A stretch of DNA of 64,000 bases from Bacilli bacterium (GCA_051872415.1 JBJEDW010000042.1:56850-120849), one strand, 5' to 3'. Shown: positions 31,179 to 62,026, counted from the first letter of the stretch. The notes: a model not told the origin generated them from the sequence alone. Translations and numbers: made by a program.

Positions 31179-31204
31179 ATTATAACATAGAAAGCTTTAA
31201 AAAA

Positions 31205-32225
31205 TCAACTAGAAGGTATCTTTAACTGTTGCCCTATTGACAACAAATCACTCGTTAAATTATTATAACTCTTAAGTTCACTTACACTTATTCCATAATT
31301 ATTCGCTATCTTCCACAAACTATCTCCTGATTTTACTATATAAATTGTACTAACACCACCACTTGGTATCTTTAATTGTTGCCCTATTGATAATAAATCA
31401 CTTGTTAAGTTGTTATAACTCTTAAGTTCACTTACACTTATTCCATAATTATTTGCTATTTTCCACAAACTATCTCCTGATTTTACTACATAAACCACCC
31501 CAGTCTCTTCTTCTTTCTCACTCGGAATAAACAAAAGTTGACCTATATTCAAATTATTACTAGTAAGATTATTAGCTTTTTTTAATTCATCCACACCAAT
31601 TCCATAACTAGTGGCAATCTTCCATAAACTATCGCCTTTAACTACCACATAATAATTAGCCCCTGGCAAAGGCGCATATTTAACTCCTGTATAAATTGCT
31701 ATTGCACGTACAACAGCTTCGGCATACTTTAAATAATCTTTTTTTATCCTACTAGCATCATTACTATTATCAACATAACCAAATTCAACCATAACAGTCT
31801 CGTAATCAGGAGTATCTCTTAAAAGAACATAATAATCATTTTGTGTATTCTCTGGATCTCTAAGTTGATAATATTTATTAACAACTCCTCCAGAAGTAGT
31901 AACTTGATCTGCTATCTCTTCAGCAAAATCATCACTATTCCTAAGAGCATAAATAATTTCTAAACCCTCTTCTCCACCTTTATTCAAATGATTAGAAACT
32001 ACTATTACATTTTTATCATTGCCAAAAGCAGAAGTTATAATATTAACCCTTTCTTCATCCGAAATAGTCCTATCAGTACTTCTAGTAATAATATTTTCTA
32101 TTCCCAAATCATCAAGTCTATCTTTAATATAATTAGAAATTAAAAGAGCATAATCTTTTTCTACAATAGCATTACCTTGATTACCAGGATCACTTCCTCC
32201 ATGGCTGGTATCGGATAAACCCAGA
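31205..32225 (-). pseudogene. N-acetylmuramoyl-L-alanine amidase with 3 C-terminal LysM repeats; 5' end (about 10 codons plus promoter) missing
   Basis: Frame is open from TAG at about 32226 with no start. Reads ..SDTSHGGSDPGNQG.. (Amidase_3 zinc-binding region), then 3 LysM repeats. The first ATG (31205..32107 in the ORF track) lies well inside the catalytic domain. Confidence 0.7.
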
Positions 32226-32258
32226 AACTATATTTTTTATTATTTTATAGGTTATACT

Positions 32259-33866
32259 TTATAAATCAAGATTCCACTCTATCTTAATCTCTCTGGTATT
32301 GGTTTCTTTATTTAATGCACCAACATATATTTTTTCTATAAATTCATCCACAATTATTCTAGTTAGTTTTTTAATATGTTTATACTTTTTAAGTATGCTT
32401 TCAATGTCTTTAGAGTTTTCTTTTCTCTCTTTTGTTTCATCAAGTTGTTTTTCTATTTCTTCTAGTCTTAATTGATATGATTCAACATCCTTTGTATATT
32501 CATCTCTTAACATTGAAAAATCACTATCGGATATTACACCTTTCAACTTATCTGTATAAAGATTTTTAAAATATAATTTGCTTTCATTTATCTTCTTTTC
32601 AAGATTTGCTTTTTCCTTATTTAAATTAGTAATTAAAATATCTTGTTTATTTTCTCTTTCTAATGTTGCGTTATATTCATCTTCAAGTAATTTCTTATTA
32701 CACTTTTTTAATAATTCATTTATAGCATCAAGTACATAATTTTCAATAATATCATATCTTATTGATCTATTATTATCACAAGTATGATATTTTTTACTAC
32801 CTTTGCATTGTAGATATGCTCTTTTTTGCATAACTCCATCAGCACATTTAATATTGCATTGATTTCTCATAAAGATTCTTCCACATTCAGCACAATATAC
32901 TTTACTGCTTAATATATGTACTTTACCATCTTCTTTTGCTGGTCTATGATGATTCTTTAATCTTTTTTGAACTAAATACCATGTTTCATTATCAATGATT
33001 GCCTCATGAGCATTTTCTGTGACGCTCCATTCTGATTTAGGAACTTTTTTTGACTTATGATTTTTATAACTAATATTTGTTCTTTTACCTTGTACTAATG
33101 TACCATTATAAGTTTCATTTCGTAGCATTCTTGCTATTGTATCTGATGTCCATATTCCAGTTGTATCATAATCAAAATTGCAACATACGAAATTACTTCC
33201 AATAGATTTTTTATAAAGAGATGGACATAATATTTTTCTTTCATTTAGACTAGCACATATTCTATGATAACCAAGTCCATTTTTATATTTTTCAAATATC
33301 TCTCTAACAATGGGGGCAACATTTTCATCAATAATAAGTTTATGCTTATCATTAGGGTCTTTCATATAGCCATAAGGTGCAAAACTCCCCATAAATAAAC
33401 CATCATCTCTTTTATTTTTCAACGATTTCTTAACATTGTTAGATAAATCCTCTAAATACCACTCATTAACAAGTCCATTAATTTGTCTTGATTTCTTGTT
33501 AGCCTCATTGTTAGTATCAGCATTATCAACTATACTTACAAATCTAACTCCCCATTCAACAAACTTGTTATGTAGATATTTCTCTATTACTTCCATATCT
33601 CTTGAAAATCTACTTTGTGTTTTACATAATACAATATTTATTCTTCCATTTTCACAATCATTAATTAATCTATTAAAATCTGGTCTTTCAACTCCTGCTC
33701 CAGAATAATCATCATCTGAATAAATATCTACAATTTCCCAACCTTGATCCAAAGCATATTTTAAAAGCATACTCTTTTGATTAGTGATTGACTCACTATC
33801 ATCATTTTTATTTTTCTTATATCTATCCTCATCCGATAGTCTGCAATATACACCTACCTTTTCCAT
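32259..33866 (-). CDS. Large serine recombinase (resolvase N-terminal domain, recombinase and zinc-ribbon domains)
   Basis: MEKVGVYCRLSDEDR catalytic Ser motif. 535 aa with a Cys-rich C-terminal domain. Its stop lies 33 bp from the truncated amidase. Confidence 0.9.
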   Translation of the reverse strand: MEKVGVYCRLSDEDRYKKNKNDDSESITNQKSMLLKYALDQGWEIVDIYSDDDYSGAGVERPDFNRLINDCENGRINIVLCKTQSRFSRDMEVIEKYLHNKFVEWGVRFVSIVDNADTNNEANKKSRQINGLVNEWYLEDLSNNVKKSLKNKRDDGLFMGSFAPYGYMKDPNDKHKLIIDENVAPIVREIFEKYKNGLGYHRICASLNERKILCPSLYKKSIGSNFVCCNFDYDTTGIWTSDTIARMLRNETYNGTLVQGKRTNISYKNHKSKKVPKSEWSVTENAHEAIIDNETWYLVQKRLKNHHRPAKEDGKVHILSSKVYCAECGRIFMRNQCNIKCADGVMQKRAYLQCKGSKKYHTCDNNRSIRYDIIENYVLDAINELLKKCNKKLLEDEYNATLERENKQDILITNLNKEKANLEKKINESKLYFKNLYTDKLKGVISDSDFSMLRDEYTKDVESYQLRLEEIEKQLDETKERKENSKDIESILKKYKHIKKLTRIIVDEFIEKIYVGALNKETNTREIKIEWNLDL

Positions 33867-40306: not shown

Positions 40307-40666
40307 AAACATCACCAATTAATTTTATGATAGTATTAATAAATAATTGTCAAAAACTATACAAAAAAGGAGCTGTAATAAAATAATTTAATTCAATTCT
40401 TTTATAGTACATATAATTATTTTCAGCTTTTAATAATTTATTTATGACTTTTCTATTATCCAAAAAGAGAAACATCATTTTATTTTGACATTTCTCTTTA
40501 AAAGTTAATTTATTTATTTATTTTCTATTTTCTTTAATTCTGCTAACTCTATTTGAGCTATTGATTTTTTCGGAGTTGGCAAATTTTCTGGCAAAGTACC
40601 ATCTAATCTTTTAATCGTTTCTCTCACTGCTTTTCCTACTTTATGATGAGTCATATTAGCATCGTG

Positions 40667-40897
40667 TTAGTTATTTATATTTTCTTTTTTTAGTTTTGCT
40701 TCAATTTGAACAATACAAAATAAATTATCTGCTAATTCTTCACTGCCCATATAATCTAATATTTCATCTTTATCAGTAAGCCCTATTCGGTTTGCTATTT
40801 GCTTAGCATTTTCTCCACCATACAAACCTTGATAACCATAATTAGTAAATTTACCACAATTGTCTAATCCTTCAAAAATAACTAACACGCCTATCAC
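40667..40897 (-). CDS. Hypothetical small protein (76 aa)
   Basis: ORF only. Lies in a region of decayed phage-like fragments; a DinD/Bro-like C-terminal fragment MTHHKVGKAVRETIKRLDGTLPENLPTPKKSIAQIE is at 40505-40645 on the minus strand. Confidence 0.3.
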   Translation of the reverse strand: MIGVLVIFEGLDNCGKFTNYGYQGLYGGENAKQIANRIGLTDKDEILDYMGSEELADNLFCIVQIEAKLKKENINN

Positions 40898-50022: not shown

Positions 50023-50096
50023 TGGCAGGGGTAGCAGGAGTCGAACCCACATCAGCGGTTTTGGAGACCGTTATTCTACCATTGAACTATACCCCT
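50023..50096 (-). tRNA. tRNA-Trp (anticodon CCA)
   Basis: Minus strand AGGGGTATAGTTCAATGGTAGAAT..CTCCAAAAC..GGGTTCGACTCCTGCTACCCCTGCCA. Confidence 0.9.
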
Positions 50097-50706: not shown

Positions 50707-51647
50707 TTATGGAATCAAAAGAGTTTGTCCTATTTGCAAAATATCACTAGATAAATTATTAAGCTTAATCAAATCATTAACATTAACATCATAAATTTGA
50801 GCAATTTTCCATAAACTATCTCCACTCTTAACAATATAAGTTTCATATTCACTAGTCTTTGGAATAACAAGCTGTTTACCTATACTAAGCATATTACTGC
50901 TTAAATTATTAGCCTCCTTAAGTTCATCAACTGTAATATTATATTTCTTAGCAATACTCCACAAACTATCACCTGATTTTACTACATAAATAATTTGATC
51001 ACTATTATTTTTATCAATACTAGGTATTAATAGTTGCTGACCTATTTGTAATAAAGTAGTACCCAAGTTATTATAATCAACAATATCATTAACACTCACA
51101 CCATATTGATTAGCAATATTCCACAAAGAATCACCAGATTTTACAGTATAAACAACATAATCACCAGGAGAAACATTAGAAGAAGTCGGAATAACCAAAG
51201 TTTGTCCAATATTAATAAGATTACCACTAAGTCCATTAGCATTCTTTAAACTTTCAACACTAATATCATATTTATTAGCTATTCCATATAAACTATCACC
51301 TTTTTTAACAACATAAGTATTTGCACTAACCCCAGGAAGCGAATAAGGAACACCTATATAATCCACAACAGCTTTAACAACAGCCTCTACATAATCATCT
51401 AAGTTATTCTTAAGCTGACTAATATCATCCTTAGGACTATCAATAAAACCATATTCTACCAAAATAGGTTCAGTCTTTCCTGTTTCTCTATGAATAAAGT
51501 AATAATCCTTAGTAGGATCACTAGGAAGTCTTCTCTGATAATAACTACGAATATTTTGTCCTTCACGAGCTATATTATTAAGAACAGACTTAGACAAAGT
51601 ATCACTATTTCTTAAAGCATAAACTACTTCAGCACCATCGCCACCTG
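50707..51647 (-). pseudogene. C-terminal about 313 codons of a LysM amidase (end of catalytic domain plus 4 LysM repeats), 5' part severed
   Basis: Frame opens at TGA right at the junction. Reads SPGGDGAEVVYALRNSD.., about 90% identical (protein) to 55040..56233. Junction after CACCT 51643-51647. Confidence 0.75.
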
Positions 51648-51699
51648 GTGATGGTCATTGTGTAACATTTTTCTAATTTCTTAATATTTTAAAACTTTA

Positions 51700-52130
51700 T
51701 ATTGTGCTTTTCACACCATTCTCTAAATACATAATTATAATAATCAGATGAAAAGTTGCGATATTCTTCATATAAATCATGTTTTTTCAAACAATCATAA
51801 AATTTATCCATATAATTGTGGTTTCTTAATATATAAAATAATTCTGTCTTGTTTGTTTATCATCCCAAATATTTTTTACAAATTCAGACATTGTTGATTT
51901 ATGATCAATAAATTCATAACTTGGCAGTGAATAAATATTTAAAGAAGCTTTAGATAGTAATTTTTCATAATCTTCATCAATTGGATTGTCAGGTAAATGC
52001 TTTTTTTAATAATCCCATGGATTTACTATTTCCATTATATCCGTTTTAAAAAAAACACATTCCCTGTCACGTATATTCATAAGAATATCTGCTATCGTAT
52101 ATTTTTTTAAATTATTCATTATTATCACCA
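51700..52130 (-). pseudogene. Decayed ORF with multiple in-frame stops
   Basis: Minus-strand translation gives recognisable segments (KKHLPDNPIDEDYEKLLSKASLNIYSLPSYEFIDHKSTMSEFVKNIWDDK) interrupted by stops. Confidence 0.4.
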
Positions 52131-52153
52131 TCTATCTAACATTTAAATTCTTA

Positions 52154-53041
52154 TTAATTATGACTCTTTTTATTTTTCGTTAAATTTTCTATAACATACT
52201 CATGAAGTCTTGGCATCGTAATTAATAAATAGACATAACGTTCCAAATACATAAAGATTTCGGAAGAATCGCCTCTACTATAATAACCAGGGTTTGCTTT
52301 ATCACTTTCTTTTATAGTACCATTAAAAAACTTAACAAAATTTGAATTGCATTTATTAACTCTATTTAAATATTCTTTAGCTTTCTTATCATTTCCAATC
52401 TTATAGTATAATGCAAATAAAGGAAATAACATTTCTAAATTTTCTTCTGGATATTTTTTATATAATTTCAGCATATCATTTTCTTCTTCTAATGTAGCAA
52501 GTATTGCCATTAATAAATATCTGGCTCCCATATTGTCATTTTCATTTAATCTTAAAACTTCTCTACATATACTTTCTGCTTGGCGTAATTTTCCTTCTTC
52601 TAATAAATATTCTGCTTTAACAACCAGCCCTCTAATATATGGTCTTGTTTCAAATATTCCATAAAAATATCCAATGTTTTCTTTATCAAAATATTTCTCT
52701 TTTGTTAATCTATTTTTTTCAGCTTCTAAGCCATCATCTAAAAGTTTCATTCTTTTTATTCCATTTTCCTCTAAATCACATTGAAATAAAATTGCATCAA
52801 AACATTCTGGCGATTTTTCATATGCTTTTTTTGCTAACTTTATAGCCTCTTTCTCGTTTCTTGCATTTTGTGCTTCTTCTAATATTTCATAAGCATCATC
52901 AAGTGGTGTATTTTCATATTCTATTTCTCCATTGTTATACATTTTTATAAATTCTTGTAATTTTTCATTTGCTTCATCAATGCTTTCAACATTATTATTT
53001 TTTAAATATTCTTGTAACATATTATTAAACTTATTATCCAT
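52154..53041 (-). CDS. Hypothetical helical-repeat (TPR-like) protein, 295 aa
   Basis: Repeated amphipathic helix pairs (AIKLAKKAYEKSPECFDAIL, EGKLRQAESICREVLRLNENDNMGARYLLMAI). No catalytic motif. Confidence 0.45.
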   Translation of the reverse strand: MDNKFNNMLQEYLKNNNVESIDEANEKLQEFIKMYNNGEIEYENTPLDDAYEILEEAQNARNEKEAIKLAKKAYEKSPECFDAILFQCDLEENGIKRMKLLDDGLEAEKNRLTKEKYFDKENIGYFYGIFETRPYIRGLVVKAEYLLEEGKLRQAESICREVLRLNENDNMGARYLLMAILATLEEENDMLKLYKKYPEENLEMLFPLFALYYKIGNDKKAKEYLNRVNKCNSNFVKFFNGTIKESDKANPGYYSRGDSSEIFMYLERYVYLLITMPRLHEYVIENLTKNKKSHN

Positions 53042-53066
53042 TTACTTCACCTTCTACTTTCTATTT

Positions 53067-53501
53067 TTAACAATCTTTTTCATATTCTATTTTATTATCA
53101 ATACACCATTGTTCAGCAATTTTCTTATATTCATTATCTCGAAATTTATACCAATCATCAGTTATATTATTGTAATCAGTTATTTCTCTAAACCTATGAA
53201 AAGTTCCGTTTCCTCTAGTTACGTTAAATAATTCATTTCTTATTAAATCATTACTTATATTACTAATAAAATCCTGCATAATATCATAATCATTTTTTGT
53301 ATAAAAATTAAACATACTAATGATATCATCATTGAATTCATCATCTTCTGTATATGTAGATTCCTCTTTGTTAAAATCCCATTGCCACAAAACTTCATTT
53401 GTTTTAGTATTAAAATAACAACTTGTTTCCATACTAACATCATATAATGCATCTCTTATTTCAGATAATTTTATCATATTTACTTCACCTACTACTTTCA
53501 T
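53067..53501 (-). CDS. Hypothetical acidic protein, 144 aa
   Basis: ORF 26 bp downstream of 52154..53041. Preceded by the TGCAGAATTCTCTGCA palindrome at 53526-53541. Confidence 0.45.
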   Translation of the reverse strand: MKVVGEVNMIKLSEIRDALYDVSMETSCYFNTKTNEVLWQWDFNKEESTYTEDDEFNDDIISMFNFYTKNDYDIMQDFISNISNDLIRNELFNVTRGNGTFHRFREITDYNNITDDWYKFRDNEYKKIAEQWCIDNKIEYEKDC

Positions 53502-53586
53502 TCTGCGGTAATTATTGTAGAACTATGCAGAATTCTCTGCACATTTTTATTATTAAATATTTCTTAATAACATAGGATTTTTCATT

Positions 53587-54801
53587 TTAAAATTCTTCAC
53601 TTAATAAAAAATCAATCAAATTCAAATGAATAATACCATCACGAGATAAATCTATCTTATCAAGAGAAATAACATATTTTGGATAATTATCTTCTATAGA
53701 TTTATACGCTCCAAATTCTCTTTCAATAGTACTTTCATTGCCTTTCATTTCATAAGTGACTTGAATATATTTAATATTTCCATCTTTCTTTGCTAAAAAG
53801 TCAACTTCACCATTTTTAGTTTTACCAATATATACTTCATAGTTTCTATTTATTAATTCGTTATAAACAATATTTTCTAAAACAACATAACTTTTAAATT
53901 CTGGATTATTATTTTTAATTTGGGCAATTCCTAAATCAGTTGCATAATACTTATTTAACGTTTTTAAAACTCCTTTACCTGCAATATCATATCTATATAC
54001 CTTTTTAAGTATTAATGCTTTACATAAAGCATCTATATAATTATATAATGTTTCATTAGATATTTTTTTATTTTCTTTATCTAGATATTTTATAATATTA
54101 TCAGAAGAAAACTCACGACCAGCAGTTTCAATCAAATATTGTAATATCATATCAAACAAAACTGTATCTTTTAAATTTAATCTTTTTACAACATCTCTTA
54201 AAATAATTGAATCATATACACTATGAAGATAATTTTTAATATCAATTTCATTTGTAAACTCACATCTATTAGGAAGTCCACCCCATTTAGCGTAATCCCA
54301 AAAAGTATCTAAGTCTTTTCCATCTTTATTTGTTAAAGAAACATACTCTTTATAAGATAAAGGATTAATATTAAATGAAACATATCTTCCTGATAAAACT
54401 GATGACAATTCATCTGATAACATTTTACTATTAGAACCAGTTAAAAATATGCTTATATTTTTTATTGAAGCTCTTAATGAATTAACAACTTTTTCAAAGT
54501 TATCTACATTTTGAATTTCGTCTAAAAACAAATAATATATTTTATTATCTTGAATTTTATCTTTTACGTATTTATTTAGCTTTTTATAATCTAGTAATTC
54601 TTCAAATTCAATAAATTCAAAATTAATAAATATTATATGTTCTTCATCAATTTTTCTTTTTTCTTTTAATTCTTCTATTATTTGATTTAGAATAACTGAT
54701 TTACCGCATCTTCTTATACCAACCAATATTTTAATTAAATCTGAATCATAAAATCCTCTTATTTTAGATAAATAATCTTCTCTTAAAAGCATATTAATCA
54801 C
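53587..54801 (-). CDS. AAA ATPase of the AAA_14 + DUF4143 family
   Basis: VGIRRCGKS Walker A, LFLDEIQ Walker B and a C-terminal DUF4143-like region. Confidence 0.7.
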   Translation of the reverse strand: MINMLLREDYLSKIRGFYDSDLIKILVGIRRCGKSVILNQIIEELKEKRKIDEEHIIFINFEFIEFEELLDYKKLNKYVKDKIQDNKIYYLFLDEIQNVDNFEKVVNSLRASIKNISIFLTGSNSKMLSDELSSVLSGRYVSFNINPLSYKEYVSLTNKDGKDLDTFWDYAKWGGLPNRCEFTNEIDIKNYLHSVYDSIILRDVVKRLNLKDTVLFDMILQYLIETAGREFSSDNIIKYLDKENKKISNETLYNYIDALCKALILKKVYRYDIAGKGVLKTLNKYYATDLGIAQIKNNNPEFKSYVVLENIVYNELINRNYEVYIGKTKNGEVDFLAKKDGNIKYIQVTYEMKGNESTIEREFGAYKSIEDNYPKYVISLDKIDLSRDGIIHLNLIDFLLSEEF

Positions 54802-54833
54802 CTCTGATTACATTATATATTATTTTTATATTT

Positions 54834-54871
54834 TTGTAAAGTTATTACGGTTAATCGTAATAACTTTACAA
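54834..54871. promoter_or_regulatory. Perfect 16-bp-arm palindrome TTGTAAAGTTATTACG-GTTAAT-CGTAATAACTTTACAA
   Basis: Read directly. Lies between the amidase stop and the start of the DUF4143 ATPase. No flanking T run, so operator-like rather than a terminator. Confidence 0.5.
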
Positions 54872-55039
54872 ATGTAAAAATTATTACACCAGTAGTATAT
54901 TGGTCAAAAAATAAAATTCTATAAATTATATTCAATTTATTTCAAACAATCCATTTTTTATCAAAACACAAAATAGATTAAAATATCTACAAGAATATCT
55001 CAATCTATTATAAATAATTACCAAAAAATGGAAAATAAA

Positions 55040-56233
55040 CTAAGGTATCAAAAGAGTTTGCCCTATTTGCAAAACATCACTAGATAAATTATTAAGCTTA
55101 ATTAAATCATTAACATTAACATCATAATTTTGAGCTATTTTCCACAAACTATCACCACTTTTAACAACATAAGTTTCATATTCACTAGTCTCAGGTATAA
55201 TAAGTTGTTGTCCTATACTAAGCATGTTACTACTTAAATTATTTGCATCTTTAAGTTCATTAACAGTTATATTATATTTCTTAGCAATACTCCATAAACT
55301 ATCACCTGATTTTACTACATAAATAATTTCATCACTATCAAGAGTAACACTAGGTATTAAAAGTTGTTGTCCAATTTGTAATAAAGTAGTTCCTAAATTA
55401 TTATAATTGGCAATATCATTAACACTAACACCATATTGATTTGCAATCTCCCATAAAGAGTCACCCTTTTTAACAGTATAAACCACATAATCACCTGGAA
55501 GAACATTGTTAGAAGCAGGAATGATTAAAGTTTGTCCAATATTAATAAGATTACCACTAAGTCCATTAGCACTCTTCAAGCTTTCAACACTAACACCATA
55601 TTTATTAGCTATTCCATATAAACTATCACCCTTTTTAACAACATAAGTATTAGCACTTACACCAGGAGCAACATAAGGAACACCTATATAATCCGCAACT
55701 GCTTTTACAACAGCTTCAACATAATCATCTAAATTATTCTTAAGTTGACTTATATCATCCTTAGGACTATCAATAAAACCATACTCCACTAAAATAGGTT
55801 GGGTCTTCCCAGTTTCCCTATGAATAAAGTAATAATCCTTAGTAGGATCACTAGGAAGTCTTCTTTGATAATAACTACGAATATTTTGTCCTGTTTTAGC
55901 AATATTATTAAGAACAGATTTAGCTAAAGTATCACTATTTCTTAGAGCATAGACTACTTCAGCACCATCGCCACCTCCCGCATTTATGTGATTAGAAATA
56001 ACTATCACATCATCTCTATTACCAAAAGCATTAAGTATCCTACTAACTCTTTCAGTCTTAGAAAGCGTCTCATCAGTATCACGAGTAAGTTTAACAGGAA
56101 TTCCAAGTTCATTAAACCTATCATACATATATAAAGCAGCCTCTAAAGTAAAATCTTTTTCCTGTAAATTTCCATTAATAGCACCAGGATCAACTCCTCC
56201 ATGTCCTGCATCCACTACTATTTTATAATTCAT
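55040..56233 (-). CDS. N-acetylmuramoyl-L-alanine amidase (Amidase_3) with 4 LysM repeats, intact
   Basis: MNYKIVVDAGHGGVDPGA...SNHINAGGG...E. The C-terminus has four LysM repeats of the type YVVKKGDSLYGIANKYGVSV. Confidence 0.85.
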   Translation of the reverse strand: MNYKIVVDAGHGGVDPGAINGNLQEKDFTLEAALYMYDRFNELGIPVKLTRDTDETLSKTERVSRILNAFGNRDDVIVISNHINAGGGDGAEVVYALRNSDTLAKSVLNNIAKTGQNIRSYYQRRLPSDPTKDYYFIHRETGKTQPILVEYGFIDSPKDDISQLKNNLDDYVEAVVKAVADYIGVPYVAPGVSANTYVVKKGDSLYGIANKYGVSVESLKSANGLSGNLINIGQTLIIPASNNVLPGDYVVYTVKKGDSLWEIANQYGVSVNDIANYNNLGTTLLQIGQQLLIPSVTLDSDEIIYVVKSGDSLWSIAKKYNITVNELKDANNLSSNMLSIGQQLIIPETSEYETYVVKSGDSLWKIAQNYDVNVNDLIKLNNLSSDVLQIGQTLLIP

Positions 56234-56421
56234 AAACTATCACCTAAAATATCTTATGAAAAAAATCAAAAATGGTGCAAATATATTAAATGTAAACAAA
56301 ACAAAATTACCAAAAATTACCAAAAAAAATAGGTTGACATAGTCAACTCTAAGCCTCTCCATTCCAAAAATATAAAGGAATTTAGAAAGTTTTCGCAAAT
56401 AATACTATTAGGAGGTGTTAT

Positions 56422-56550
56422 ATGTCAAATTTAAATAATTCAGAACTAATGAATATTTATGGCGGTAGAGCAGGATTTGCTTTACCTAATTTTGATGCTT
56501 ATATCAAAATGTTTAATTGGATTTATAAAACTGTTAAATCCTGGTTCTAA
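56422..56550 (+). CDS. Double-glycine-leader bacteriocin-like peptide (42 aa), unannotated
   Basis: TAGGAGGTG RBS. MSNLNNSELMNIYGG|RAGFALPNFDAYIKMFNWIYKTVKSWF. Confidence 0.6.
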   Translation: MSNLNNSELMNIYGGRAGFALPNFDAYIKMFNWIYKTVKSWF

Positions 56551-56644
56551 TTTTTTACAGTAGTATTTTTGCTACTGCTTTTAATTTTTAATAATATATA
56601 AATGATTAAACATATAACACCAAATACAAAGTAAACTATATTAT

Positions 56645-57060
56645 TCAATTAATATATCCTATCATTGCATAAATATTGTGTATAAAATGCATAATTATTG
56701 GATATATTAAATTATCCATTTTAAAGTAAGAATAATTCCATATTAAACTAATAACTAATAGTATTACAAAAACATCTATCCCATAAAAATGTATTAATGA
56801 AAATATTATTGAAGTTAATAGCATAATTATAATATTAGATTTAAATTTTTTATTTAAATATTCATATAATCCAAATCTAAATATTATTTCTTCAAAAATT
56901 GGAGCAAACAAACACATAGTAACTATTTCTAAAACTATAGACCAAAAATTCGTTGGAATATTTGAAATAGTTTCATCTATTGGTAAAAAATAAATTGTTT
57001 GTTCAATTATATTCTTAATATTTCTAAAGGAAAGTGTTTATCAATATTTTTTACTTCCAT
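56645..57060 (-). pseudogene. CPBP-family (Abi/CAAX) immunity-type protease, N-terminal part disrupted
   Basis: ORF 56645..56917 carries EEIIFRFGLY and SLIHFYG. Upstream TM-coding sequence is out of frame. Confidence 0.55.
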
Positions 57061-57189
57061 AAAACCACCTATAATTTTTTTATATAATACCTGATATAAT
57101 TTTTAATTTTGCCTGGTATTATGAAACAACATTTAAAAATTATTCTTTATTTAAATATTTTCAATTTATCCTATCAATCTATAGTTTGA

Positions 57190-58482
57190 TTAATTTTTTA
57201 AATTTCCAATAGAAACAACATATACCCCATCTTCACGAACATAAGATAATTCCGAAGCTGTTAACACCATTAAAAATGCCGGTTCCCCGCTTTTAGCTAT
57301 ATCTATTTTATCTTTAAATTGGATTAATGTCTTAGCAGCATCATCAATTTGTTTTGCTCCCATTTTAACTTCAATTGCACCCCATTTACCATCAGAAGTT
57401 TTTAATATAAAATCGACTTCAAAATCTTTGTTATCTCTAAAATAGAATAAATCTGCATTTATAGATTCGGCATATATTTTTAAATCTCTATAACACAAGT
57501 TTTCAAAAATAAATCCAGTAAAATTTAAATCATTTATTAAATTTTCTTTTTTTAATCCTAAAGACGCTATTGCTATAGAAGGATCTATTAATTCTAATTT
57601 AGGACTTGTTCTTAATTGTATTGATGATCTTAAATTCAAATTAGTTGCAGGAACATATTCGAGAACAAATAATTTTTCTAACGTTAATAAATAATCATCA
57701 ACGGTAGGTCTTGAAATTCCTAGATTAAATAAATTTGATGTATCGTTTACAATTGTAATTTTATTTGTTGCTGTTGAAACATTTCTACTAATACTTTTTA
57801 ATAAAGCTTCCATTTTATATTTATCTCGTTCAATGCCATCTAATGATTTTACATCTTCATTAATTAAACTTTTAACATATTCTGTAGCAACTTTAAATTT
57901 ATTTTCACCAGCAATATTTAATGATTCAGGCCATCCACCTCTTATCATTACATTAATAATATCATCAAAAGATAAACTAGAAACTCCAGATATATCTTTA
58001 CTATTTATAATGTCTAATAATGATACTTTTCCATTTGATTCTCCAGATTCATACAATGACATTGTTCTCATCATTAGCTTTGTTATCCTACCTGTACCAG
58101 TATGCATAATCTCGTTTTCAACTGGTCTTGCAGAACCCGTCAAGATATATTGTCCTTTTAAACTAGTATGATCAATATCCATTCTAATAGAATCCCATAT
58201 AACAGGATACATTTGCCATTCATCAAATAATCTTGGTTTTTCACCTTCTAGAAACAACGATGGTTTTGTATTACTAATATTATCATATTGAATTTTTTTA
58301 TCAGGATCTTGTAATTCAACTAAACTATTACAAAATTGTTTCGCAGTCGTTGATTTTCCACACCATTTTGGTCCTTCTATCACAATTGCTCCCATATATT
58401 CAAGCTTATTTTTTATTATATTATCTACAATTCTAGGCATATATTTTTTCATAAATGAATCCCTCCAAATATTATTATACAC
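57190..58482 (-). CDS. AAA ATPase of the AAA_14 + DUF4143 family (second copy, diverged)
   Basis: IEGPKWCGKST Walker A and a DUF4143-like C-terminus. Confidence 0.7.
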   Translation of the reverse strand: MYNNIWRDSFMKKYMPRIVDNIIKNKLEYMGAIVIEGPKWCGKSTTAKQFCNSLVELQDPDKKIQYDNISNTKPSLFLEGEKPRLFDEWQMYPVIWDSIRMDIDHTSLKGQYILTGSARPVENEIMHTGTGRITKLMMRTMSLYESGESNGKVSLLDIINSKDISGVSSLSFDDIINVMIRGGWPESLNIAGENKFKVATEYVKSLINEDVKSLDGIERDKYKMEALLKSISRNVSTATNKITIVNDTSNLFNLGISRPTVDDYLLTLEKLFVLEYVPATNLNLRSSIQLRTSPKLELIDPSIAIASLGLKKENLINDLNFTGFIFENLCYRDLKIYAESINADLFYFRDNKDFEVDFILKTSDGKWGAIEVKMGAKQIDDAAKTLIQFKDKIDIAKSGEPAFLMVLTASELSYVREDGVYVVSIGNLKN

Positions 58483-58649
58483 TATTTTTATTATTTTACA
58501 AATTTTATTTTACATTTTGTACTGTTTATGTTTTACGTTTTGTACTTTTTTTATTTTGCATTTTGCCTTTTTTATTTTATGCGCATTATTCATATTTAAT
58601 ATTATATAAAAAACTAAACATAATAACTTTTTATTTTTTATCTCAATAC

Positions 58650-58946
58650 TCAATCAATTCCTTTGTAGTGGTAACTAAACTCTGCACCTCCCGCATTTAT
58701 GTGATTAGAAATAACTATAACATCATCTCTATTACCAAAAGCATTAAGTATCCTACTGACTCTCTCACTCTTAGAAAGGGTCTCATCAGTATCACGGGTA
58801 AGTTTTACAGGAACACCAAGTTCATTAAACCTATCATACATATATAAAGCAGCTTCTAAAGTAAAATCTTTCTCCTGCAAATTACCATTAACAGCACCAG
58901 GATCTACTCCTCCATGATCAGCATCCACTACTATTTTATAATTCAT
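58650..58946 (-). pseudogene. N-terminal about 87 codons of the amidase (DADHGG variant) with promoter, severed after HINAGG
   Basis: About 97% nucleotide identity to 55976-56340, including about 100 bp upstream. Diverges exactly after CACCT (58684-58688). Confidence 0.75.
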
Positions 58947-59831: not shown

Positions 59832-61070
59832 TCATTTTTCCTTCAAATTAATAGAAACATCCACAAGCTTTCCATCTCTTTCAACAGTAAATAAAGCTTT
59901 ATCTCCAACCTCTTGTTTAAATAACTCGTATCGTAAATAAGCCATATTATCAACACTGTTTCCATTAAGCTTTATAATAATATCACCAACCATAAGCTTT
60001 CCATCAGCAGAAGTACCAGATTGAACTTCCTCAATAACCACTCCTTTTTCAAGTTTAGTATCAACCTTTTTAGAAAGACCATAATACTCCATAGCTTCTT
60101 GATTTTCTAAATTAACCATAGAAATACCTAAATAAGGTCTTTTAATATTTTCTCCCTTTTCAAATGTATCTAAATGCCCCTTAATATCTTCAATAGAAAT
60201 AGCAAATCCCATTCCTTCAACTTCATTTTTAACAAGTTTAAGAGAATTCATTCCAATAACTTCACCATTAACATTACAAAGAGGCCCACCACTATTACCA
60301 GGATTCATAGCGGCATCAGTTTGAAGAAGCTTCATAACATAATCTTCTACACCCCCACTAACAGCAACTGTAACAAGTCTATCCTTACCAGATAAAATAC
60401 CTCGAGTAACAGTACCTCTATATTCATCTCCAACTGGAGAACCTACAGTAAATACAGTATCACCAAGTACAGCACTTGTACTAGAACCAAGCTCAGCAAC
60501 CTGCTTAACAGCACCATCATCAACACTTATAATAGCAATATCTAAATATTGATCCCCACCAACATATTTAGCATCAACTTTAGAATCATCTGAAAAAGAA
60601 ACCTTCAAAGAACTACTACCATTAACAACATGATAATTAGTTAAAATATATCCTTTACCTGAATCTTTTTTATATACAAAACCTGTTCCAGAAACAGAAA
60701 GTTTATCATTCTTATAATTCTCTATATAAACAGTAGCATCATAAACTTTCTTTATCCCTAAATTAAGCCCCTTATCAACAAGTTCTACCTGAGCAGTGGA
60801 AGATTTAAACATAACTTCTTTAAAACAAAATACAAAAATAATAGCAACTACAAATCCAAGAACAAACAAAAGAATATACTTAATATTCTTACTCAAAAAA
60901 TCACTTTTCTTAACAGATTGACTCAAAGATTCACTCTTCTCATTATTTCTTGTAAAGCTTTTCTTTTTATCAGAATTATCCTCATAAACAACTTCAGCAT
61001 CAATTACTTTATCACTAATAACTTCAGTTTCATCTTCTTTTAATTTTTTTTCCTCATTACCTGTTTCCAT
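59832..61070 (-). CDS. htrA: HtrA/DegP-family serine protease (trypsin domain + PDZ), membrane-anchored
   Basis: His in TNYHVV, Asp in DIAII, Ser in GNSGGPL. C-terminal PDZ. N-terminal TM. Confidence 0.85.
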   Translation of the reverse strand: METGNEEKKLKEDETEVISDKVIDAEVVYEDNSDKKKSFTRNNEKSESLSQSVKKSDFLSKNIKYILLFVLGFVVAIIFVFCFKEVMFKSSTAQVELVDKGLNLGIKKVYDATVYIENYKNDKLSVSGTGFVYKKDSGKGYILTNYHVVNGSSSLKVSFSDDSKVDAKYVGGDQYLDIAIISVDDGAVKQVAELGSSTSAVLGDTVFTVGSPVGDEYRGTVTRGILSGKDRLVTVAVSGGVEDYVMKLLQTDAAMNPGNSGGPLCNVNGEVIGMNSLKLVKNEVEGMGFAISIEDIKGHLDTFEKGENIKRPYLGISMVNLENQEAMEYYGLSKKVDTKLEKGVVIEEVQSGTSADGKLMVGDIIIKLNGNSVDNMAYLRYELFKQEVGDKALFTVERDGKLVDVSINLKEK

Positions 61071-62026
61071 TAAAACAACTCCTTCTTAAATATTCCCTTA
61101 ATATCACTCCAATTATCTGGAAATCCCATTCTATCAAGAACTTTATTAATAGGTATAGTCCTTAAATTAAAATCTAAATTATTAATAGCATCCTCTATTT
61201 CTAAAACTAAATCATTAACTTCATTCTCCTTAAGCATAGACTTAAGAATAATAACAAGAGCAAATAAATCATTCTTACCATAAATATACTCATTATCCAT
61301 CATAGGAATATTAAGTTTTCTATGATACACAGAATCTTCAATACATTTTTGAGTTCTATTTTCATAAACAATATCCTCATGAGCACATAAATTACGATAA
61401 TTAGACAAAATACTAAGATTATTCATAAAAGCTTTTAAATCAAGATCATAAAATTCAATAATATCATATTGATCCTCTTTCTTTAAAACCGAAAAAAGCT
61501 CAACAACAATTCCAAAAGACAACACCTTAACAAGAACCCACAAAGGAATATAGCCATAATTAAGAGCATAATGTCTAGTAGCAGAATGAACAGTAGCATT
61601 AGTCTTAATTTGTCTTTTCATTTTACCAATCACATCATTTACTTGCCTTCTGCAATCAAAAGATGTATTAAAATTAGAAGACTTTAAATATTCCTTTTCT
61701 CTATAACCATATTTCTTAGAAAGTTGATAAGATATTATAGACTTAATATTATTCTCAATTATTAAAATATTTTTAAATAATATATTTCTAAGACGCCTAT
61801 CAAATAAAAATAAACTATATACTTCTTCAAACTTAGTACCTTCAATATATCTAGATTTATCCTTTGATTTCATAAAAAGATGACGATATCCATTCAAAAA
61901 GAAATAATTTTCCCTAAGAAGAACTTCCTTAGCAAACTCTTCATCATCTATTACAAGACCCTTATCCCTCAAAATCTTAATTTGTTCATCTAAAGACTTA
62001 AATGTTTTGCTTCTCATAAGTACCAC
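61070..62026 (-). CDS. Abi_2 family abortive-infection protein (AbiD/AbiF-like)
   Basis: LDEQIKILRDKGLVIDDEEFAKEVLLRENYFFLNGYRHLF matches the Abi_2 N-terminal signature. Its stop overlaps the htrA start codon. Confidence 0.65.
   Translation of the reverse strand: MVLMRSKTFKSLDEQIKILRDKGLVIDDEEFAKEVLLRENYFFLNGYRHLFMKSKDKSRYIEGTKFEEVYSLFLFDRRLRNILFKNILIIENNIKSIISYQLSKKYGYREKEYLKSSNFNTSFDCRRQVNDVIGKMKRQIKTNATVHSATRHYALNYGYIPLWVLVKVLSFGIVVELFSVLKKEDQYDIIEFYDLDLKAFMNNLSILSNYRNLCAHEDIVYENRTQKCIEDSVYHRKLNIPMMDNEYIYGKNDLFALVIILKSMLKENEVNDLVLEIEDAINNLDFNLRTIPINKVLDRMGFPDNWSDIKGIFKKELF

Follow-up and report, generated by a model that had tools for sequence, protein, structure and literature searches.

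Do three co-directional genes that sit side by side in a variable region make up one conflict system, or are they separable parts that share a neighborhood? The question is raised by a 64-kb stretch of a Bacilli bacterium genome (GCA_051872415.1, JBJEDW010000042.1:56850-120849), hereafter the window, whose GC content is low (about 25%) and whose nearest relatives are uncultured gut 'Bacilli' genome bins. Here a gene for a P-loop ATPase, a gene for a small acidic protein and a gene for a TPR protein follow one another, and an original prediction took them for the best candidate in the window for an undescribed conflict system, with a perfect, operator-like palindrome in each intergenic gap. We find instead that the three genes are separable parts and form no obligate unit. 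The reading that we hold to be probable, though well short of certain, is that the block is a mosaic of two separable co-directional units inside a decayed integrative island. The first would be the ATPase gene, which together with its own near-consensus promoter and an operator of three half-sites would move as a self-contained cassette. The second would be a TPR gene whose product resembles ST7, flanked by two paralogs of the UPF0158 family, one intact and one dead.

Between 51.6 and 54.9 kb every real gene is on the minus strand. Transcription runs from the ATPase gene (ATPase1, 53587-54792; an AAA_14 P-loop ATPase with a DUF4143 domain by Pfam and PADLOC) through the gene for the acidic protein (UPF0158a, 53067-53477, which matches Pfam UPF0158 near its cut-off) to the TPR gene (52154-53041; 295 aa, with Pfam TPR_19/TPR_14 matches and a weak ST7 match), and the intergenic gaps along the block are 109, 25 and about 22-34 nt. 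The last of these gaps leads to a fourth gene that the count of three had missed, the UPF0158b pseudogene (51692-52131, minus strand), which was found in two frames by tblastn against the intact genes of relatives. The three minus-strand open reading frames (ORFs) were otherwise correctly placed, and their descriptions as TPR-like, acidic and DUF4143 AAA ATPase hold: the matches are to TPR_19/TPR_14 and to AAA_14 plus DUF4143, and the isoelectric point (pI) of UPF0158a is 4.3. Two starts probably need revision. The ORF finder gives ATPase1 as 53587-54801, from a GTG at 54801, and the true start is likely the ATG at 54792, for a protein of 401 aa, the length called in relatives. For UPF0158a the ORF (53067-53501) does have the 144 codons' worth of protein that had been reported, but the true start is likely the ATG at 53477, because 136 aa is the usual length among the near-full-length homologs listed and a GGTGA ribosome-binding site (RBS) lies 7 nt upstream; the protein would then be 136 aa.

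Do the three genes travel together? We surveyed 80 species-representative loci with a TPR homolog (53-96% identity), using a 12-sequence TPR alignment for the scan, calling ORFs and classifying the neighbors. The full trio of ATPase, UPF0158 and TPR genes is present in six of the 80, and also in several metagenome contigs; a UPF0158 gene adjoins the TPR gene in 12. If an intervening UPF0158 gene is skipped, the effective 5' neighbor of the TPR gene is a PDC-S01 ATPase in 16 loci, nine of them ATPase1-like and seven of a second subfamily too diverged for phmmer to link it to ATPase1 at E<1e-3. The neighbor is a Bro-N protein matching PADLOC PDC-S13 in 16 loci, a DnaI/IstB-like gene in six, an amidase in two and some other gene in 39, and one locus has none, at a contig edge. 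About half of the TPR homologs have no PDC-S01, Bro-N or DnaI-like gene immediately 5'. A profile search for more distant TPR relatives yielded only proteins of 58-96% identity, and the contexts beyond the Bacilli lineage are plasmid records, to which we return below.

Within the lineage the parts come and go. Some loci have ATPase, UPF0158a, TPR and UPF0158b genes in that order, followed by an amidase fragment (L013-L018); some have a recombinase, an amidase fragment and then UPF0158a and the TPR gene, with no ATPase (L019-L022); others have the ATPase and TPR genes without UPF0158a (L007-L012), or the TPR gene and UPF0158b without an ATPase (L001-L006). Close relatives also show an ATPase-UPF0158-Fic arrangement that lacks the TPR gene, and ATPase genes with unrelated genes downstream. 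The original prediction was to be given up if the trio never occurred together outside this genome; it does so occur, in the six species genomes and the metagenome contigs, and yet neither the co-occurrence nor the order of the trio is conserved across diverged genomes, as every subset is seen. One route by which a part might be gained or lost can be read at the junctions. A nearly identical 22-nt leader, GAAAGTAG[T/A]AGGTGAAGTAAAT, stands before both UPF0158a (53478-53499) and the TPR gene (53042-53063), and in relatives that lack UPF0158a the ATPase gene is joined to the TPR gene exactly through this RBS leader (L007, 7897-8000). The junction suggests that UPF0158a may be gained and lost by recombination between the repeated leaders.

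What, then, travels with the ATPase gene? An inverted-repeat scan of the window finds, at 54833-54872, a palindrome with perfect 17-bp arms, TTTGTAAAGTTATTACG and CGTAATAACTTTACAAA, around the 6-nt spacer GTTAAT. No perfect inverted repeat in the window is longer, and it is non-random, as arms of 16 bp are reached in 0 of 60 first-order Markov simulations. Relatives keep its core, AAAGTTATTACG-N6-CGTAATAACTTT. A third half-site, GTAATAATTTT (54877-54887, minus strand), stands in direct orientation to the arm nearer the promoter, some 10 nt 5' of the core of the palindrome, and is invariant in the alignments of all palindrome-bearing contexts. The best promoter match between 51.5 and 55.3 kb, of sigma-A type (54812-54840, minus strand), agrees with the consensus at 11 of 12 positions, with TTTACA at -35, a 17-nt spacer and TATAAT at -10. 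Its -35 box is inside the proximal arm of the palindrome, and both hexamers are conserved in relatives. This site had been described as a palindrome of one of the gaps within the trio. It is in fact slightly longer than claimed and deserves to be called operator-like, but it lies upstream of the first gene, not between genes of the trio, and it belongs to the ATPase gene rather than to the three genes together.

The second of the two supposed palindromes fares less well. In the spacer between ATPase1 and UPF0158a, TGCAGAATTCTCTGCA (53526-53541) has the reverse complement TGCAGAGAATTCTGCA, and hence is no perfect palindrome; read from the sequence it is a short hairpin, TGCAGA-ATTC-TCTGCA, with a 6-bp stem and a 4-nt loop. 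One terminator-like site in 3.8 kb is within chance (shuffle expectation 0.5 +/- 0.9), the T-run after this hairpin is on the non-coding plus strand only, the genes being on the minus strand, and relatives have direct TGCAGA repeats at this position and no inverted repeat. We considered and rejected a terminator reading of both inverted repeats, as neither is followed by a T-run on the coding strand.

An unbiased exact-pattern scan of metagenome contigs for the large palindrome returned 17 loci. In 11 of these it is directly 5' of an ATPase1-type gene, about 24-37 nt away; in two it lies between a Bro-N gene and a TPR gene; and in four it is elsewhere, in other contexts. What follows the palindrome and ATPase gene varies: a gene for a 263-aa protein (L112), unrelated genes (L116, L124), UPF0158 and Fic genes (L126), or UPF0158 and TPR genes (L114, L118). 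Because the linkage of palindrome and ATPase gene persists while the downstream genes vary, the ATPase gene moves with its operator like a single portable cassette. The palindromic element also occurs twice in tandem in one locus (L115, 3856-3924), and in three others it has no ATPase or TPR gene nearby (L120, L121, L127); in this lineage, then, the element is dispersed among intergenic regions. IMG/VR has no copy of it.

Is the palindrome an operator at all? At the DNA level it might instead mark a recombination site or the boundary of a cassette, and as RNA it might form a hairpin or a terminator. The 12-6-12 geometry of its core is like that of recombinase core sites, the different gene arrangements lose their homology to one another no more than about 10 nt 3' of the palindrome, and the element turns up in several unrelated contexts, once in tandem, all of which would suit a site of recombination. 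The overlap with the -35 box of the best promoter, with both hexamers co-conserved, is harder to accommodate, and no recombinase is consistently adjacent. For an RNA structure, one would look for a T-run, and there is none after the palindrome on either strand, nor is there an Rfam match: an Rfam scan from 49.5 to 59.5 kb finds tRNA-Trp as its sole match. Moreover, arm changes in relatives are uncompensated (C to A in L007-type loci, and other changes in L025 and L061), and therefore independent protein half-sites fit better than a hairpin. Taken together we judge these non-operator readings very unlikely. We favor the operator, on which a dimeric DNA-binding protein would sit, in the simplest case the winged helix of ATPase1 itself, so that expression of ATPase1 would be repressed or autoregulated.

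The ATPase itself is not new. ATPase1 matches Pfam AAA_14 (E=1.1e-33) and DUF4143 (E=2.3e-12), and it matches the PADLOC PDC-S01 model PDLC04787 at E=1.5e-138 over its full length (residues 3-402 of 404). The 'guilt by embedding' approach is the origin of PDC-S01, a single-gene phage defense candidate (bioRxiv 10.1101/2024.01.29.577857) in which an ATPase is described as joined to a PD-(D/E)xK domain (PMC12988326); DUF4143 was included in a survey of PD-(D/E)xK proteins (PMC3424549). Recent surveys place PDC-S01 among the most often detected predicted systems (PMC12988326, PMC13356809), and the candidates that gave E. coli B protection from T4, T5 or T7 did not include the one PDC-S01 representative tested (bioRxiv 10.1101/2024.09.26.614923). 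ATPase1 is thus an already catalogued, unvalidated defense candidate. The expectation that such an ATPase belongs to defense and mobile-element contexts is borne out, since the gene is a recognized candidate and the region in relatives is mobile, variable and rich in defense genes. The claim of an undescribed conflict system is not supported, given the same match and the trio's not being obligate. That none of the three genes had an assignable function was only partly right: the ATPase is PDC-S01 and the small protein probably belongs to Pfam UPF0158, and the statement otherwise holds in part.

The likeness of ATPase1 to PDC-S01 goes beyond the full-length profile match and the shared architecture of an ATPase with a PD-(D/E)xK-superfamily domain, for at the palindrome-anchored loci, with their varied downstream genes, it also behaves as an autonomous single gene. 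Two differences stand out. The first is in the nuclease domain. Both Walker motifs are there, A as GIRRCGKS and B as LFLDE, with GKS and DE invariant in the alignment; a winged-helix region is weakly indicated, and the DUF4143 domain is PD-(D/E)xK-like. At about residues 330-350 of ATPase1, however, the ATPase1 subfamily has the nuclease motif as D...QVT and not D...EVK, while retaining the D of E-V-D-F. Q-V-[T/A/S] holds throughout the subfamily, where the nuclease E-x-K would be expected, whereas ATPase2, the second such ATPase in the window, and the second subfamily retain E-V-K. A conserved E-R-E lies about 12 residues downstream of the Q-V-[T/A/S], and the alignment allows that the active site may have shifted there. 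The second difference is the conserved three-half-site palindromic operator-like site; in the PDC-S01 literature we found no mention of such a palindromic operator, though no search aimed at the operator was made. A sequence search of solved structures gave no significant match for ATPase1, and NCBIfam and PHROGs gave nothing useful for ATPase1, UPF0158a or the TPR protein. We propose that ATPase1 would act on nucleic acid as a stand-alone candidate protein for defense or for conflict between mobile elements.

ATPase2 (57190-58482) matches another PDC-S01 model, PDLC04790, at E=8.9e-60, and its D...EVK motif is intact. Upstream of it are direct repeats, GTACAAAA[C/T]GTAAAA, and no palindrome of the ATPase1 type. 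The gene adjoins a truncated CPBP/Rce1-like protease gene (56645-56917), and on the strand opposite to ATPase2 a 42-aa bacteriocin-like peptide with a GG leader is encoded at 56422-56550. The second DUF4143 ATPase and the presumed bacteriocin and immunity genes next to the trio had been seen correctly.

With both ATPases in view, one can ask again whether the three genes might be a single cooperative conflict system, with the TPR protein as scaffold or sensor, UPF0158 as partner or regulator and the ATPase as motor or effector. The layout is operon-like, with one promoter, and the trio does recur, in the six species loci and the metagenome contigs and with two ATPase subfamilies. The ATPase1 subfamily, having QV[TAS] in place of the E-x-K residues, might also depend on partners. 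Nevertheless, close relatives show each possible pair of the genes and each gene singly. When ATPase1-type genes are ascertained by their palindrome, a TPR gene is downstream in only two of the six loci with enough sequence. The window's other ATPase, ATPase2, lacks partners of this kind; about half of the TPR homologs, like the three distant UPF0158 homologs examined, have none of these partners adjacent; and PADLOC itself models PDC-S01 as a single gene. We regard a cooperative three-gene system as improbable, and return to the reading of two separable units.

What can be said of the second unit? The TPR gene has no evident promoter of its own in the window, and would ride 3' of whichever gene is upstream. 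Its product belongs to a family of proteins of about 290 aa with 2,803 clusters at 50% identity (E<1e-3). The match to Pfam ST7 (PF04184) is 15.2 bits, under the gathering threshold of 24.3, but two remote homologs pass Pfam ST7, P0290 with 67 bits and P0358 with 49 (E=1e-18 and 5e-13); the window protein is thus ST7-like by transitive homology only. It has in common with ST7 the motifs F-Y-G-x-x-E-T-R-P-Y-x-R and L-N-x-x-D-N-x-G-x-R-Y, and differs in being a small soluble bacterial protein with a sub-threshold score. The AlphaFold model (pLDDT 86) is a predicted superhelix like those of consensus TPR proteins and of the TPR domain of O-GlcNAc transferase, and the Foldseek matches are to generic TPR superhelices only; in a sequence search of solved structures the best match, at E=0.06, is not significant. 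No TPR homolog was found in phage genomes.

UPF0158a falls a hair short of its family's threshold, scoring 21.0 bits against a gathering cut-off of 21.1. Close homologs do pass: the ortholog in L023, 90% identical, scores 29.3 bits, and most cluster representatives carry a precomputed PF03682 match. UPF0158b in the window is broken twice, by an in-frame stop (52006-52008) and by a frameshift in the vicinity of 51840-51853, and it is 85-89% identical to the intact genes of relatives, which encode 143 or 144 aa (for example L001, 8915-9349, and L013, 9360-9791); the intact ortholog of L001 passes Pfam UPF0158 at 24.2 bits. UPF0158a, just at the cut-off, and the intact UPF0158b orthologs match the model of this uncharacterized family. 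The G-x-G-x-F-x-R-F ... W-Y ... W-C motifs are common to both and to distant members in Planctomycetes-like genomes. The arrangement is what differs, as here two paralogs flank a TPR gene, and the three distant members examined are solitary. The AlphaFold model of UPF0158a has a pLDDT of 93, and Foldseek gives no match to it in the Protein Data Bank (PDB) or BFVD at E<0.1; a sequence search of solved structures finds nothing either. For the two proteins, the predicted structures would then be a generic TPR superhelix and a UPF0158 fold without a match, to which neither an ordinary housekeeping fold, named beforehand as counting against a conflict system, nor the sensor and effector roles once suggested can be assigned. 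No PADLOC model matches the TPR protein, UPF0158a or UPF0158b. We also tried a toxin-antitoxin (TA) or polymorphic-toxin immunity reading of UPF0158 and the TPR protein, and rejected it, there being no toxin domain, no match to an immunity (Imm) or TA profile and no supporting context. We suggest that the TPR protein would be a protein-binding scaffold, with UPF0158 as its likely ligand.

A further possibility is that the TPR protein serves, alone or together with UPF0158, as a constant adaptor or regulator for a variable upstream effector, be it PDC-S01 or Bro-N/PDC-S13. Each of these is the 5' neighbor in 16 of 79 loci, co-directional and usually at a gap of about 0-130 nt. TPR proteins 85-96% identical to that of the window are found behind different partners, and the palindrome-bearing control block can stand 5' of either an ATPase-TPR pair or a TPR gene alone. 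The same pattern would be expected, however, if the TPR gene were a conserved flank of a recombination hotspot, and the six loci with a DnaI-like neighbor and about 39 with unrelated ones fit an adaptor poorly. Neither the TPR nor the UPF0158 proteins match a PADLOC model, and the sampling is from one lineage. We consider such an adaptor possible but unlikely.

Might the TPR and UPF0158 proteins rather serve the mobile element itself, in integration, excision, transposition or maintenance, and have no part in phage defense? The smallest elements in relatives hold a serine recombinase, one cargo gene, an optional UPF0158 gene and the TPR gene (L027, L029, L118, L123). In addition, tblastn finds a 267-aa TPR homolog on 430 plasmids, mostly of Klebsiella and Enterobacter; its identity is 29% across 88% of the query, and it comes directly after an ISNCY-type DDE transposase as a second ORF. 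The unity of this transposase-TPR block rests on one segment of 2,251 bp, 92% identical, that is common to two Klebsiella plasmids, NZ_CP043934.1 (L103, 5534-7784) and NZ_CP055413.1 (L104, 5537-7784), and we found no terminal inverted repeats to bound it. Most TPR loci have no recombinase within 10 kb, and neither protein resembles a known recombination directionality factor by sequence or fold. A role confined to the element seems to us very doubtful, and that of a scaffold in a separable TPR-UPF0158 unit remains the one we prefer.

Several observations do weigh against our reading of two separable units. In 32 of 79 species loci the TPR homolog directly follows a PADLOC candidate gene, and in each case the two genes point the same way and lie close together. 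This placement exceeds what simple co-residence might predict, and it could reflect real cooperation. The trio recurs with both ATPase subfamilies (L023, L025 and L026 with one, L030-L032 with the other). The palindrome is found directly 5' of a TPR gene that follows Bro-N (L035, L044, L046, L119, L123), and with these sites and the four unrelated contexts the ATPase is not alone in having it. All of the context data, furthermore, come from one lineage of uncultured gut Bacilli, and many of the loci are not independent. A single polypeptide that joins a UPF0158 and a TPR domain (P0231) supports a link between these two proteins, but we give it little weight: it is a singleton, its contig is only 2.3 kb long, and two genes may have been merged when it was called.

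How did the block come to lie here? A gene for an N-acetylmuramoyl-L-alanine amidase (Amidase_3 with LysM) is present three times: as a 3' fragment (50707-51646), a full copy (55040-56233) and a 5' fragment (58685-58946). The two fragments abut at about codon 87 on an AGGTG core, which is intact in the full copy; an empty site would be an amidase gene intact across AATGCGGGAGGTGGCGATGGTGC. Mapping of the junctions against the intact amidase defines an insert of 7,038 bp (51647-58684), with AGGTG shared at both ends, and so confirms the insert of about 7 kb noted before, both fragments meeting on AGGTG. At its left junction the 5' fragment ends on AGGTG (58685-58689, minus strand); at its right end TTACACAATGACCATCACC and the AGGTG core are found (51642-51665, minus strand), where the 3' fragment resumes. 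L010 has the same right end at the identical position in the amidase, L026 a more diverged form of it, TTACATTTTGACCTATGCG, and both of these loci carry a large serine recombinase. From these sequences the breakpoint looks like an integration site for large-serine-recombinase elements. As in such islands, the split in the target gene falls exactly on a short core common to both sides, and the end of the element is conserved. The relatives fill out the likeness, with a Resolvase/Recombinase/Zn_ribbon_recom gene beside the amidase fragment and with restriction-modification, OLD-family, Fic and PDC genes as cargo.

In their simplest form these elements consist of the amidase 5' fragment, a recombinase, one cargo gene, an optional UPF0158 gene, the TPR gene and the amidase 3' fragment (L027, L029), or of a recombinase, cargo and the TPR gene followed by an amidase fragment (L118, L123). 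Larger elements at the same site in relatives carry restriction-modification, OLD-family ATPase, Fic and HEPN genes, and AbiE-like genes are also seen at this locus in relatives. The window insert differs in having no recombinase: there is no recombinase gene between 50 and 59 kb, and the nearest is at 32322-33851. Because a complete second amidase copy lies inside it, the insert must also have been rearranged or have decayed. We propose that a 7,038-bp insertion split the amidase gene at this recurrent breakpoint, and that the copy in the window would since have lost its recombinase.

The surroundings contain other features of interest. About 2 kb past the insert is an Abi_2/AbiD abortive-infection gene (61070-62026, minus strand; Pfam E=1e-40, PADLOC AbiD E=1e-61), which is consistent with a neighborhood rich in defense genes. 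On the other side, the conserved side of the variable region, the tRNA-Trp gene (CCA; 50023-50096, minus strand) lies just past a SleB-like Hydrolase_2 gene. Farther away, within 31184-33851 on the minus strand, a second large serine recombinase, 32% identical to that of L013, is beside a paralog of the amidase (49% identical), and at about 40.5 kb (40520-40870, minus strand) there is a remnant of a PDC-S13-like Bro-N gene. The area from 31 to 41 kb, with its recombinase, amidase paralog and Bro-N remnant, may mark another integration site of this type.

What is new here, and what was known? The ATPase is already catalogued and the trio is no conserved system, and to that extent the finding as first posed is mostly explained. 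What the locus adds to PDC-S01 is a concrete handle on one of its subfamilies, the three-half-site palindrome over the -35 box, and if the gene is tightly repressed or dependent on induction, this could help explain the absence of a PDC-S01 phenotype in heterologous tests. The amidase gene, as a recurrent site of small serine-recombinase islands in uncultured gut Bacilli, could be used for cataloguing defense cargo. The main lead is of another kind. Why is an ST7-like TPR gene, often with a UPF0158 gene, so often found directly after a PDC-S01 or PDC-S13 gene, and on plasmids after a transposase? It is conceivable, though we would not expect it, that the TPR and UPF0158 genes are an unrecognized portable accessory module of mobile elements, placed in gut Bacilli 3' of two unrelated single-gene candidates within mini serine-recombinase islands and acting as adaptor or regulator either for an upstream effector or for recombination of the element. 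If so, many 'single-gene' PADLOC candidates would really be two- or three-gene systems. The recurrent placement of the TPR gene in any case provides a cheap hypothesis for two large families that have no function assigned.

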